Below, one piece after another: positions 21,786 to 26,528 of a stretch of 42,912 nucleotides of DNA. Positions within the stretch are counted from its first letter, which is position 1, and each line of letters opens with the position of its first letter. The position numbers and the translations under genes are program-made. This stretch comes from Chloroflexota bacterium. GTDB lineage: Bacteria; Chloroflexota; Limnocylindria; Limnocylindrales; Limnocylindraceae. The stretch lies in contig JBEDDM010000003.1 in assembly GCA_041176225.1 (NCBI GenBank), forward strand, positions 1-42,912. Reading direction: 5' to 3'. The notes beneath the pieces were generated by a model. That model did not search any database. It saw nothing but the letters and a program-made list of their open reading frames with translations, and was not told the origin of the DNA.

Positions 21786-22286
21786 TTAGTCGGCCTCGTA
21801 ATCGCTGCCGCGACCGCTGTGCCTTCGGGCGAGAGAGAGTGCGATGGCGAGGGAGAGGACGAGCCCCGCGAGTGCGCCGAGTTCGTAGAGAAGCGGCGAG
21901 ATATCCTTGCCGGCGACCAACCACTGCTCGACCTGCGCGGTGGCGATCAGGATGCGTCGAACGACCGCAACGAGTCCGATGATGAGGAATGGTTCAAGGA
22001 TGAGCTGTGATCGCGCGAGTGAAATGCGTAGTGTGTAGATCAACTCCGCAATGATGAAGAGGAGGAGTACACGATCAAGGATCTTGAGCGCCGCTTCGAT
22101 GCTGCCAGATTGGAGCCCGACGACGATCTCATGAAGTACTTCACCGCCAATGATGAGGACCGCGACCAGGAGAACGCCAGCGAGTATGAGATCAAGTCCG
22201 ATCTCGACCAGGCGAAGCGCAGATCGCGCGGACTCGACGGGACCCTTGCCGCCTGAAACTCTCCGATTACGTCTCTGCTCTGCCAT
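21786..22286 (-). CDS. Phosphate-starvation-inducible PsiE family membrane protein
   Basis: LDRVLLLFIIAELIYT...EPFLIIGLVAVVRRIL signature; 4 TM; ATG 22286 with GATGCT 6 nt upstream. Confidence 0.8.
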   Translation of the reverse strand: MAEQRRNRRVSGGKGPVESARSALRLVEIGLDLILAGVLLVAVLIIGGEVLHEIVVGLQSGSIEAALKILDRVLLLFIIAELIYTLRISLARSQLILEPFLIIGLVAVVRRILIATAQVEQWLVAGKDISPLLYELGALAGLVLSLAIALSLARRHSGRGSDYEAD

Positions 22287-22321: not shown

Positions 22322-22639
22322 CTAGGCGTGGCTGAAGAGGCCCCCAGGGGCCTCCAGTGCGGAGGCGAATGGGAGTGTGCTCCACGAATCGTCGAATGCT
22401 TCGATCGTCCATGCGCCGCTGCGGCGTGAGAAGGCGATCACGAGCGTTGCGTCCTCAGTCTCTAGCTCCCAGAGTGTGCGAGGGCCGGAGTTGGCACGGT
22501 AGGCACCGTGCTCCTGGCGCAAGGCGAGCACCTTGGTCACCTTACGCACGATCCCCTCGAAGGCGACCGCCTGAGGGGTCCCTTTCCACCAGTGCGCGGT
22601 CACCTTGACCGCGACTGGAACAATCTGCTGCATTGCCAT
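22322..22639 (-). CDS. Small DUF6504/ImuB C-terminal-like protein, LexA-regulated
   Basis: GTPQAVAFEG-x-RKV...RTLWEL...GAWTIEAFDD pattern resembles DUF6504/ImuB-C; SD GGAGG; two LexA boxes in the promoter. Confidence 0.65.
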   Translation of the reverse strand: MAMQQIVPVAVKVTAHWWKGTPQAVAFEGIVRKVTKVLALRQEHGAYRANSGPRTLWELETEDATLVIAFSRRSGAWTIEAFDDSWSTLPFASALEAPGGLFSHA

Positions 22640-22689
22640 TTCATGCCTCCCGCCCCGTGGGGCCCCCTTCCGGGGTCTGCTGCGAACTA

Positions 22690-22701
22690 GAACATCTGTT
22701 C
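22690..22701. promoter_or_regulatory. LexA (SOS) box 1
   Basis: GAACATCTGTTC = GAAC-N4-GTTC, just downstream of the predicted transcription start of the 22322-22639 gene. Confidence 0.88.
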
Positions 22702-22710
22702 GGCACAGCT

Positions 22711-22739
22711 AGTGTCATAGAACATCTGTTCTCTGTCAA
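22711..22739 (-). promoter_or_regulatory. Sigma-A promoter TTGACA-17-GACACT containing LexA box 2 (22720-22731)
   Basis: Minus strand: TTGACA (22739-22734), a 17-nt spacer holding GAACAGATGTTC, then GACACT (22716-22711). Confidence 0.8.
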
Positions 22740-22817
22740 GGGGTTGTTTTCGTAGGTGTGCGAGAATCCCCGCACCAGCGCGGGGGCCTCTCCCCGCCCC
22801 TAAGGAAGGAGCGCATC

Positions 22818-23264
22818 GTGAAGGTCATCCTCACCGCTAATGTCCCAAAGGTCGGCAAGGCCGGCGAACTCAAAGAAGTGGCGAGCGGGTACGCCCGGAA
22901 CTACCTGATCGCCAATGGCCTCGCCATCCCTGCGATCGGCGGGGCGGCGAATCGGGTCGCGGCGGAGATCGCCTCACGGGCCACCAAGGTTGATCGCGTC
23001 AAGCAGGAGGCGGAGGAGTACGCCAAGAAGATCAGCGCCACCGCCCTCACCATGGGGGTGAAGGTCGGCGAAGGCGGGAAGCTCTTCGGCTCCATCACCA
23101 ACAAGGAGATCGCTGACGCGCTCGAGCGCCGTGGCATCACCGTAGAGAAGCACCAGGTTCTCCTTGATGAACCGTTGAAGCAGCTCGGCACGTACAAGGT
23201 GCAGGTGAAGGTTGCGGCGCACCTCATCGCTGAGGTGACGGTCACGGTTGAACCGAAGAGCTAG
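22818..23264 (+). CDS. rplI: 50S ribosomal protein L9
   Basis: MKVILTANVPKVGKAGELKEVASGYARNYL, GKLFGSIT; SD AAGGAG before GTG 22818. Confidence 0.97.
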   Translation: MKVILTANVPKVGKAGELKEVASGYARNYLIANGLAIPAIGGAANRVAAEIASRATKVDRVKQEAEEYAKKISATALTMGVKVGEGGKLFGSITNKEIADALERRGITVEKHQVLLDEPLKQLGTYKVQVKVAAHLIAEVTVTVEPKS

Positions 23265-23292
23265 CCAGTCGCATCGCTGAGAGAAGAAACGG

Positions 23293-24480
23293 CTGACGGC
23301 AACGAACACGTCCGCACCCCGCAGCATCCTTCACGTTGATCTCGACGCCTTCTTTGCGTCAGTAGAGATCCGCGACAATCCGTCGCTTGCCGGAAAGCCT
23401 GTTGCTGTTGGTTACGGCGATGGACAGCGCGGCGTAGTCTGCGCCGCAAACTATGAGGCGCGCGCGTTCGGTGTGCGTGCGGCGCTCTCCACACATGTCG
23501 CGCGCGCGCGCTGCCCTCAGCTGATCCTCATTGAACCTCGCCATGATCGCTACAGCGAAGCCTCTGATGAGGTGATGTTGCTCCTTGATGCGTGGAGTCC
23601 GCTCATTGAGCAGGTCTCGGTTGACGAGGCGTACCTTGACCTCGCTGGAACGCAACAGTTGCACGGCGATGCGGCACAAGTTGCGCAAGGTCTGAAACGT
23701 GCCGTGCGCAAAGAGACTGGTTTAACGATCAGCGTCGGTGGCGGGGCAAGCAAGCTTGTGGCAAAGATCGCGTCAGGTGCATCAAAACCCGACGGTCTGC
23801 TCATCGTTCCCGCCGAAGAACAGGCGGCCTGGCTTGCACCACAGCCGGTCGGCGTCATCCCGGGAATTGGACCGGTTGCGCAGTCAACGCTGCGCGAACT
23901 TGGAGTTTCCACCTGCGGCGAACTCGCCGCCGCGCCTGACGATCACCTGCTGCGCAGGTTCGGCCCGCACGGTCCAAGCCTAAAGTTGCTCGCGATTGGC
24001 CAAGACGACAGCCCCGTTGACACAGGTGACGACCGAAAGTCACTCGGGCGTGAGGTGACTCTTGACGAAGATGTCGCCGACCCGCACGCGCTAGAAACGC
24101 TCCTGCTTGATCTTGTAGAGTCCGTTGCGCACTCGCTGCGCAAAGAGGAGCTACTTGCGCGCACTGTCACCCTCAAGCTAAAAGACACGGAGTTTGTCTC
24201 CATCACGCGGCAGGTGAAACTTCCTCAACCGAGCGCGTTGAGCGGGCCGATCTTTGAAGCGGCGCGTGCGCTACTCCGCGCAGCCGCACAGGGGGAGCCG
24301 TATCGACTCATCGGCGTCTCCGCCTCAGACTTTACGAGCGACGAACAGCTCGGACTCTTTGACGGCAAACGGACCGCGCGGGAGCAGGCCATCACCGCCG
24401 CCGCAGACGAACTGCGCGCAAAATTCGGCGACGGAGTGATCAGACGCGCGCGGCTCTTGCCTCCAGAGGACGAACCCTAA
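23293..24480 (+). CDS. dinB: DNA polymerase IV (Y-family), non-canonical start (probably CTG)
   Basis: Extending in frame upstream of the ORF-track start gives ILHVDLDAFFASVE...RGVVCAANYEARAFGV; SVDEAYLD, KIASGASKPDG and clamp motif QLGLF are present; in-frame TGA at 23278-23280. Confidence 0.92.
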   Translation: MTATNTSAPRSILHVDLDAFFASVEIRDNPSLAGKPVAVGYGDGQRGVVCAANYEARAFGVRAALSTHVARARCPQLILIEPRHDRYSEASDEVMLLLDAWSPLIEQVSVDEAYLDLAGTQQLHGDAAQVAQGLKRAVRKETGLTISVGGGASKLVAKIASGASKPDGLLIVPAEEQAAWLAPQPVGVIPGIGPVAQSTLRELGVSTCGELAAAPDDHLLRRFGPHGPSLKLLAIGQDDSPVDTGDDRKSLGREVTLDEDVADPHALETLLLDLVESVAHSLRKEELLARTVTLKLKDTEFVSITRQVKLPQPSALSGPIFEAARALLRAAAQGEPYRLIGVSASDFTSDEQLGLFDGKRTAREQAITAAADELRAKFGDGVIRRARLLPPEDEP

Positions 24481-25845: not shown

Positions 25846-25874
25846 TTGACAAGATTCCGAACAGCCGTTCTAAT
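25846..25874 (+). promoter_or_regulatory. lexA promoter with autoregulatory LexA box (25859-25870)
   Basis: TTGACA-17-TCTAAT-6-ATG; GAACAGCCGTTC overlaps the spacer and -10. Confidence 0.85.
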
Positions 25875-25880
25875 GCTCTT

Positions 25881-26528
25881 ATGACCAAGCATGACCAGGA
25901 CAGGAAGACGCGGATCCTCCAGGCGATCGCCGAGGGGAGCCGTCGTTCAGGGACGCCCCCCACGGTGCGTGAGATCGCAGACCTCGTTGGCCTCGCCGCA
26001 CCATCGGCCGTCCATCACCACCTCGAGACCCTTGAGCGCGAGGGCCTCATCAAGCGAGACTCCGGCCTCTCCCGGTCGGTACGCCTCACCGCCCGCGGGC
26101 GCTCCCTCCTTGAGCTCGACGATGCGGTGGAGGCCACCAGTCTCCCAGCGGTCGCCCGCGACCTTGTTGTAGTTGGCCAGATTGCCGCAGGAGGTCCGAT
26201 CGAGGCCTACGAGGAGCGCTCCGAGACTGTGGCGGTTCCGGAGTTCATGTCCACCCCAGACTCCTACCTACTGAAGATCCGGGGTGACTCCATGATCGAC
26301 GCACAGATCGCCGATGGTGACTACGTGGTGATCAAGCCGAGCAAGGTTGCCGCGGACGGCGACATTGTGGTCGCGCAGGTGGAAGAGAATGAAGTCACGC
26401 TGAAGCAGCTCTTCCGCGAGCAGGGGCGTATCCGCCTCCAGCCGGCAAACAAGGCGTACGCGCCGATGTACTACCCAACCGTCAACGTGCAGGGCGTGCT
26501 CGTTGGCGTGCTTCGCCGCGTTCACTAA
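25881..26528 (+). CDS. lexA: SOS repressor LexA
   Basis: PPTVREI wHTH, IAAG cleavage site (Ala-Gly), GDSM (Ser) and VTLK (Lys) catalytic dyad. Confidence 0.96.
   Translation: MTKHDQDRKTRILQAIAEGSRRSGTPPTVREIADLVGLAAPSAVHHHLETLEREGLIKRDSGLSRSVRLTARGRSLLELDDAVEATSLPAVARDLVVVGQIAAGGPIEAYEERSETVAVPEFMSTPDSYLLKIRGDSMIDAQIADGDYVVIKPSKVAADGDIVVAQVEENEVTLKQLFREQGRIRLQPANKAYAPMYYPTVNVQGVLVGVLRRVH

Follow-up and report, generated by a model that had tools for sequence, protein, structure and literature searches.

A divergent ImuB-C-like protein with a double LexA-type operator beside dinB in the class Limnocylindria

The locus described here raises the question of what a protein of 105 amino acids might contribute to the SOS response of a bacterium with a genome of about one megabase, given that its gene carries two identical LexA-type boxes in its own promoter and lies close to dinB, which encodes a Y-family DNA polymerase with intact catalytic motifs. 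The gene is an open reading frame (ORF) at 22322..22639 on the minus strand (‘the small gene’) of a 42,912-nt stretch of contig JBEDDM010000003.1 (‘the window’), which comes from a Chloroflexota bacterium of the family Limnocylindraceae (assembly GCA_041176225.1; 1,020,013 bp in 69 contigs, 91% complete, 62.7% G+C).

The comparisons reported below suggest that the small protein is very probably a highly divergent member of the ImuB-C superfamily, for which DUF6504 is the nearest Pfam model, and that a double LexA-type operator is a class-wide feature of its gene, at which binding by LexA and induction by DNA damage would be expected. The reading that we favor as a whole, with appreciably less assurance, is that of an SOS-gated, ImuB-C-like subunit which works with DinB. 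An earlier note on this DNA, made from the sequence alone, had presented the locus as a candidate for an undescribed system, and that part of its claim does not hold, since stand-alone ImuB-C proteins paired with DinB and LexA are described in passages of papers from 2013, 2019 and 2026 (PMC3765255; PMC6511836; PMC12926913). As a kind of system the locus is not new; it is a divergent and class-wide member of a described pairing, and what is new is the class-wide divergent subfamily itself, the placement of boxes at the accessory gene alone, and the retention of the arrangement in a streamlined genome. As far as the literature on this lineage is concerned, the string ‘Chloroflex’ is absent from the main text (supplementary tables aside) of two of these papers (PMC3765255; PMC12926913), and a literature search retrieved no paper for DUF6504 and none for ‘Limnocylindr’ together with LexA.

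Relationship of the small protein to ImuB-C

ImuB-C was defined by Aravind, Anand and Iyer in 2013 as a domain with a conserved C-terminal tryptophan and basic residues, whose solo versions are found ‘most frequently’ in combination with DinB and often also with LexA (PMC3765255). Passages of later papers call it the least characterised module (Timinskas and Venclovas, 2019; PMC6511836) and, in a survey from 2026, a β-barrel which has no relatives in the PDB and is unlike the SH3-type barrel of UmuD′ and YqjX (PMC12926913). An all-beta domain of ~80 residues with a conserved C-terminal tryptophan and basic residues, and without any catalytic signature, is also what is predicted for the small protein. 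An AlphaFold2 model, built with an alignment of 24 members of the small-protein family (A1), contains six strands over residues 3-83 (predicted local distance difference test score, pLDDT, 76.5; predicted template modelling score, pTM, 0.67), and W77, R41, R54 and R73 are among the invariant positions of A1, along with V13, P22, E43 and P53.

A word-indexed search returned 11 close relatives of the small protein (66-93% identity over the aligned parts), which are named ‘hypothetical’ and labelled Candidatus Limnocylindrus or Chloroflexi, and an exhaustive phmmer search at E≤0.001 yielded 49 representatives with lengths of mostly 87-133 amino acids. By using A1 as a profile, the small gene was found in all 33 class genomes sampled (the genome itself, 2 of 2 others in the genus, 15 of 15 from the other family of the order and 15 of 15 from the other family of the class), plus a single weak match (E 6.8e-4) among 268 genomes of the phylum outside the class; the 301-genome Chloroflexota sample includes three unpublished genomes (G038, G173, G272), to which no particular claim is tied.

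The relationship to ImuB-C was assessed by profile-profile comparison. When A1 was compared by hhalign with an alignment of 15 stand-alone DUF6504 proteins (A3), 11 of which are themselves encoded next to a PolIII-alpha-type gene (confirmed with Pfam in four cases), a match of 90.3% (E 1.5e-6) was obtained, with 83 aligned columns that run from Met1 to the domain's end, and five fused ImuB C-termini gave 89.9% (E 1.7e-6); values of ~90% from alignments as shallow as these (effective number of sequences, Neff, about 2.6-3.2) are good, not overwhelming. A local rerun against A3 gave 93.5% with a score of 41.0, compared to 2.9% and 17.2 for the best of 60 column shuffles and 0.1% for the reversed alignment. 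In control comparisons A3 matched the fused ImuB C-termini at 99.0% and canonical DUF6504 proteins at 98.2%, and the three members of A3 that were scanned singly all pass the Pfam DUF6504 cut-off (24.2 bits). Two other sources point the same way: sub-threshold DUF6504 matches were recorded in 3 of 37 homologues scanned with Pfam (1.7e-4, at 22.3 bits, 0.011 and 0.052; none in the other homologues), and 24 of the 30 nearest clusters in the ESM Atlas are in the DUF6504-carrying set (best score 0.91, with 204 shared features).

The likeness to DUF6504 and ImuB-C that the earlier note had read by eye is therefore supported at the level of profiles, with both the cassette DUF6504 proteins and the fused ImuB domains, and not by the Pfam model, since neither Pfam nor NCBIfam has a match to the small protein at E≤1. 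Structural comparison pointed to no known fold: Foldseek found no match to the AlphaFold2 model in the PDB at E≤0.001 (best E 0.13), and VIA-align found none with Z≥5 among 48,161 chains (best Z 4.9, to cystatin-like proteins and propeller fragments). No solved ImuB-C structure was found in these fold searches.

LexA-type boxes at the small gene and in the genome

The region upstream of the small gene reads, on the minus strand, TTGACA (22739-22734), GAACAGATGTTCTA (22731-22718), GACACT (22716-22711) and then the same box again (22701-22688), so that two identical 14-mers spaced 30 bp apart flank a candidate −10 element. Within the window the pattern GAAC-N4-GTTC occurs at three sites, namely this pair and 25859-25870 before lexA, and comparison with shuffled sequence (0.69 expected; at least three reached in 3 of 100 shuffles) makes that number modest evidence by itself.

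The decisive evidence that the boxes at the small gene are beyond chance is the conservation of the double box across related loci. These are the best 80 of 318 places encoding a relative of the small protein, obtained by scanning a single genome of each species for a peptide pattern, with an alignment (A2) narrower than A1; nearly all derive from Chloroflexota or Limnocylindr* records, plus a few oddly labelled bins. In 78 of the 80, at least two perfect boxes lie within 280 bp upstream of the homologous small gene, and the exceptions are one locus (L082) with one perfect box and one box with a single mismatch, and another (L078) with only 31 nt of upstream DNA. The layout of TTGACA, box, a TAnnnT-like −10 and second box is recurrent, with a box spacing of 30-36 bp, and 158 of the 194 perfect boxes present in 824 kb of related loci fall inside the 280-bp stretch upstream of the small gene. 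Most of the remainder are beside lexA, where the locus includes it, and no box was found before dinB, either in the window or in the related loci.

The possibility that the boxes in the window serve rplI-dinB was considered and rejected as the main reading, since elsewhere in the class the pair follows dinB and immediately precedes the small gene.

Across the genome there are 13 perfect GAAC-N4-GTTC sites, and the 10 outside the window lie, to judge from an ORF listing, mostly within long reading frames or a tRNA-like stretch. A genome scan with a matrix derived from the boxes of the relatives gave scores of 24.3 and 17.6 for the two boxes of the small gene and 22.4 for that of lexA, with 13.9 as the next best, so lexA and the small gene appear to be the strong LexA targets of this genome; the assembly that was scanned is 91% complete, and weaker sites may be functional too. 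For recA (contig 47, L149:1408-2505), the 440 bp upstream contain no LexA-type box. Together, these observations point to a minimal SOS regulon in this organism, as far as can be judged from operator sequences.

In its mechanically defined form the lexA ORF opens at a TTG (25833), which places the operator of lexA (25859-25870) inside the frame; the likely start codon is the ATG at 25881. LexA boxes have also been translated as N-terminal extensions in several database homologues of the small protein (P0009, P0016, P0018).

DinB and the possible role of the small protein

The polymerase encoded near the small gene is DinB, in which the motifs HVDLDAFF and SVDEAYLD are kept and D16, D18, D111 and E112 are invariant among 24 sequences. 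Behind a clamp-binding-type motif, the tail contains a segment whose best local match to the organism's own RecA is to RecA residues 28-52 (score 41, compared to 22.9±4.6 for shuffled sequences and reached by 6 of 2000 of them), which resembles the ‘RecA-NT’ motif of Y-family tails described in a passage of PMC6511836; Pfam DUF4113 was not reported in DinB at E≤1. Between the upstream stop codon (23278-23280) and the catalytic HVDLD motif, the frame lacks ATG, GTG and TTG codons. At 23293 it has a CTG, which is kept in three of five genus relatives, while the other two have GTG there; this codon is probably a non-canonical and weak start. These features agree with the earlier description of a DinB that is intact at the level of catalytic motifs, has a QLGLF motif and lacks a box, and the distances then given were also accurate: dinB begins 654 bp from the start of the small gene, on the far side of rplI (which ends 29 bp before it), and the likely ATG of lexA is 3.2 kb from the small gene. 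The consensus −35 and the two identical boxes were likewise there to be read.

The proximity of the two genes is a property of the class. Among the 72 related loci that have more than 1450 bp of upstream DNA, dinB is directly upstream and on the same strand in 69, and ~2.2 kb upstream in the other three. Outside the genus of the window, the stop codon of dinB is ~100 bp before the start of the small gene and the two-box promoter fills the gap, whereas in the genus the block of rplI and dinB has the opposite orientation to that in the rest of the class, which makes the small gene and rplI-dinB diverge from a shared intergenic region. This adjacency holds down to ~45% DinB identity, while rplI and lexA move about. 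In three related loci (L041, L050, L054) the match to dinB is in two to four pieces, with the small gene and its boxes intact, and these split genes could be frameshifts, decay or assembly errors. A 591-aa stop-to-stop frame in L108 that seemed to fuse DinB to the small protein was rejected, because it reads through dinB out of frame, is rich in Arg and Pro, and has LexA boxes inside it.

The genome has a single gene with an IMS domain, the dinB of the window, and a single PolIII alpha gene, so ImuB and DnaE2 were not found in this 91%-complete assembly. DUF6504 passes the Pfam cut-off in 42 of the 301 sampled Chloroflexota genomes, none of them in the class of the window. Some of these matches are 79-aa ORFs located between IMS-domain (ImuB-like) and PolIII-alpha (DnaE2-like) genes or directly before the latter, and for seven such loci (L106, L117, L133, L135, L136, L143, L145) DUF6504, IMS and PHP/DNA_pol3_alpha were confirmed by Pfam; weaker matches are to the last ~80 residues of ImuB-like proteins of 546-572 amino acids. 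Within the order, soil relatives (L146, G253:C1; L147, G187:C1; L148, G151:C4) have, behind one LexA-type box, a candidate imuA-like ORF together with a short imuB-like one (433-438 aa), with a DnaE2-like N-terminus in L147 and L148, a separate ImuB-C-like ORF only in L147, a LexA-type box of its own for the DnaE2-like ORF of L147, and a second box and no identified dnaE2 in L146; the identities of these ORFs come from sequence patterns, as distinct from Pfam matches. None of these cassette genes is present in the genome of the window. Because a separate ImuB-C-like ORF occurs in such a cassette, the small gene adjacent to dinB appears to be a distinct paralogue that has been retained in the streamlined genus.

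A further set of DUF6504 proteins, the canonical ones of ~120 amino acids, stand alone in other Chloroflexota (L086-L096). ORF lists, taken without a Pfam check, show no obvious adjoining polymerase gene in these 11 loci, and a perfect LexA-type box is present in one of them, far from the DUF6504 gene. The role of these canonical proteins may differ from that of the polymerase-linked forms.

Several known systems are similar to this one in part. The Geobacter lexA-imuB-C-polY operon (type GSU0042 of Geobacter sulfurreducens, ‘GeoPolY-like’), which is damage-induced as cited in PMC6511836, shares with the present locus a small all-beta protein of ImuB-C type under LexA control, which here is predicted, an active Y-family polymerase encoded beside it, with a clamp motif in the tail and after that a motif like the RecA N-terminus, for which DinB has a candidate, and a genome without ImuA, ImuB or DnaE2, in so far as passages of the papers describe it (PMC3765255; PMC6511836); active PolY with a stand-alone ImuB-C and without ImuA or DnaE2 is also reported there (Timinskas and Venclovas, 2019; PMC6511836), as are PolY-ImuB-C associations and PolY-ImuB-C-RecA modules in the 2026 survey (PMC12926913). 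The arrangement in Limnocylindria differs in that only the small gene is boxed, with both boxes in its own promoter, and in that the polymerase gene has no box and is not co-transcribed, the promoter lying between the genes in most of the class and the genes being divergent in the genus; in addition, lexA is 3.2 kb away and outside any operon with them, and the protein is too divergent for Pfam DUF6504. In split ImuB cassettes, such as lexA-imuY-imuB-C-dnaE2 of Deinococcus (PMC8072749) or DnaE2X (PMC12926913), ImuB-C is also a separate, small, SOS-controlled gene, and such cassettes occur in Chloroflexota, including soil relatives of this organism. Their partners, according to the same passages, are an inactive PolY (ImuY/iPolY) and DnaE2, whereas here there is an active DinB and no DnaE2, and relatives with both systems have the dinB-adjacent gene as a paralogue separate from that of the split cassette. 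A functional parallel is offered by UmuD′-UmuC (Pol V) and by YolD/YqjX with YqjW/UvrX, in which a small beta-rich subunit that is inducible by damage is believed to activate or steer a Y-family polymerase, and in which UmuC/YqjW-type polymerases also contact RecA via a RecA-NT-like motif (passages in PMC6511836 and PMC12926913). The fold of the small protein, if it is that of ImuB-C, would be different from those of UmuD′ and YqjX, and neither a peptidase domain nor self-cleavage is expected of it.

On these grounds, one can picture a cell in which, without damage, two LexA dimers would sit on the promoter of the small gene, one in the −35/−10 spacer and one just past the start site, and would lie roughly on one face of the helix because they are 30 bp apart, keeping the gene tightly off. 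After damage, RecA filaments would trigger self-cleavage of LexA and the small protein would be made, a small barrel that could then join DinB, RecA and the clamp at stalled forks. DinB, having no box, would probably be present at a low level from its CTG start, with its clamp motif followed by the RecA-binding-type motif, and the small protein together with RecA might license or direct translesion synthesis. The damage-inducible part of the module would in that case be the small subunit and not the polymerase, and the part it plays would be that of ImuB's C-terminal domain in the ImuA-ImuB-DnaE2 complex. Its contact surface could be RecA, the tail of DinB or DnaE1, because AlphaFold models from 2026 place ImuB-C in contact with ImuA and with the PHP domain of DnaE2 (passage in PMC12926913). 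The steps of regulation and homology in this picture are drawn from sequence, and each step of binding (to DinB, RecA and the clamp) is inferred; the idea of the small protein as an adaptor for DinB or a DnaE is the same proposal as that of the published papers. A complex prediction with the DinB alignment, the organism's own RecA and the small-protein alignment returned 0.00 in two runs (mark 0.32) and speaks neither for nor against binding.

Several results weigh against an SOS-gated partner of DinB with an ImuB-C fold. On the side of homology, Pfam DUF6504 (PF20114) has no match anywhere in the genome or in any of 32 other sampled genomes of the class; hhalign of A1 with 11 canonical ~120-aa stand-alone DUF6504 proteins gave a non-significant 2.8%, so the family link runs only via the cassette and ImuB forms, through the shallow alignments mentioned above; and a hidden Markov model built from A1 and run against 1742 ORFs from DUF6504 and ImuB loci returned, outside the family, only non-significant matches (E 0.037 or worse), the register of which is right. 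On the side of gene order, the small gene in the window is divergent from rplI-dinB and shares no operon with it. Synteny also extends downstream, where 73 of the 80 related loci have folD and 67 have fhs, and because the whole region is syntenic the adjacency of dinB is not specific evidence of a functional link. Co-occurrence, which had been proposed as a check, was found as expected (among 31 near relatives the small gene is present in 30 and dinB in 29, with the misses in 54%- and 81%-complete assemblies) and is uninformative because both genes are near-universal in the class. Finally, the −10 that accompanies the consensus −35 (GACACT) is weak, and a promoter scanner finds no site at its threshold for the small gene because that element is poor.

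What else the small protein might be can be judged from the same observations. It could be an SOS effector of ImuB-C fold that does not act through DinB, either a sensor of damaged DNA that recruits repair proteins or a brake on replication or division, the position of dinB then being inherited synteny. The small gene is served by a promoter of its own and, in the genus, does not share the orientation of dinB, the downstream folD and fhs are as conserved as dinB, and it is the only strong LexA target of the genome apart from lexA, a position often held by checkpoint proteins in other bacteria. A sensor of this kind was proposed by Aravind et al., who found solo ImuB-C beside Ku/ligase, photolyase-like and peptidase genes and suggested DNA binding (passage in PMC3765255). 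However, neither a membrane segment nor a known division-inhibitor domain was found in the small protein, the adjacency to dinB survives ~45% DinB identity and rearrangements that moved rplI and lexA, and the closest detectable relatives are proteins of polymerase cassettes, which leaves an effector independent of DinB an unlikely alternative, though one deserving to be kept in view.

A different partner is conceivable as well, in that the small protein might, by analogy, bind the PHP domain of the sole PolIII alpha (DnaE1) after damage and cause a polymerase switch or pause. The largest ImuB-DnaE2 interface in the 2026 models is that between ImuB-C and the PHP domain (passage in PMC12926913), and the genome has one PolIII alpha and no DnaE2; yet a second ImuB-C-like gene was seen in the imuB cassette of a soil relative with a DnaE2-like gene (L147), so the dinB-adjacent paralogue looks specialised for something else, and we regard DnaE1 as an improbable target. 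Still less credence is given to the view that the likeness to ImuB-C is convergent or spurious and that the gene is a class-specific SOS gene of unrelated fold. Such a view would account for the lack of Pfam and NCBIfam matches, has no solved structure to contend with, and can appeal to the tendency of small beta proteins of biased composition to yield middling hhalign scores, but the match extends in register over the entire domain, scores far higher than either the shuffled or the reversed controls, was reproduced with independent fused ImuB C-termini, and agrees with the sub-threshold Pfam matches of three homologues and with the Atlas neighbours.

Stand-alone ImuB-C has had no biochemical study according to passages of two of the papers (PMC8072749; PMC6511836), and a review on Deinococcus calls the role of the small ImuB-C protein ‘not clear’ (PMC8072749). 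The case in Limnocylindria is clean, with one polymerase, one accessory gene and one repressor, and with no ImuA, ImuB or DnaE2 in the genus, which makes it a simple system for asking how ImuB-C serves a Y-family polymerase. It also suggests in what way freshwater bacteria that are abundant, exposed to sunlight and equipped with tiny genomes maintain a minimal response to damage, in which the small gene is possibly the only SOS gene other than lexA in a 1-Mb genome. A more far-reaching picture, which we put forward tentatively and regard as rather doubtful, is that the LexA regulon has shrunk to lexA and the small gene, that a double-locked switch makes an ImuB-C-type subunit which licenses a constitutive, weak, CTG-start DinB, and that recA and the excision-repair genes have come to lie outside LexA control. 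Were it true, this would be a minimal SOS system whose inducible element is the accessory factor of the polymerase and not the polymerase.

Coordinates and other features of the locus

The features discussed are collected in Table 1, with positions in window coordinates.

Table 1. Features of the small gene, its promoter and the neighbouring genes (PWM, position weight matrix score)
Feature	Position	Strand	Basis or remark
Small gene; divergent stand-alone ImuB-C-like all-beta protein (probable), 105 aa	22322..22639	-	ORF listing, homologues, AlphaFold2, hhalign
GGAGG ribosome-binding site, 6 nt 5′ of the small-gene ATG	22646..22650	-	Direct reading
Proximal LexA-type box TAGAACATCTGTTC	22688..22701		Just 3′ of the putative transcription start (expected near 22704); top PWM of the genome, 24.3
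Candidate weak −10, GACACT	22711..22716	-	17-nt spacing from −35; direct reading, inferred
Distal LexA-type box TAGAACATCTGTTC	22718..22731		Within the −35/−10 spacer; PWM 17.6
Consensus −35 hexamer TTGACA, abutting the distal box	22734..22739	-	Direct reading; kept in related loci
rplI (ribosomal protein L9)	22818..23264	+	Pfam Ribosomal_L9_N/C; divergent from the small gene
dinB, DNA polymerase IV type, catalytic motifs intact	23293..24480	+	Pfam IMS 8.6e-47, IMS_C; NCBIfam Pol IV models
QLGLF beta-clamp-binding-type motif, DinB residues 352-356	24346..24360	+	Q352 and F356 invariant in 24 sequences
RecA-N-terminus-like motif, DinB tail residues 361-385	24373..24447	+	Local match to own RecA
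Single LexA-type box before lexA	25859..25870		PWM 22.4
lexA, likely ATG start	25881..26528	+	Pfam LexA_DNA_bind and Peptidase_S24; ORF listing

Some information on transcription is available from contigs of RNA libraries, which carry no information on strand, level or transcript ends and whose uncovered stretches prove nothing on expression. The coding region of the small gene is covered in four of four freshwater or lake runs at 90-99% identity, a weak hint of its transcription in lakes which says nothing on induction; positions 22670-22766 lack contig cover in three of the four runs, and 23543-24415 in dinB are uncovered in the same three.

On one side of the small gene, rplI is probably co-transcribed with dinB. 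In the other direction, a gene for a PsiE-family membrane protein (21786-22286, minus strand) begins 35 nt past the small gene's stop codon, on the strand that carries both, and is followed by an FTCD_C-like gene, folD and fhs; this PsiE-family gene may be co-transcribed with the small gene.

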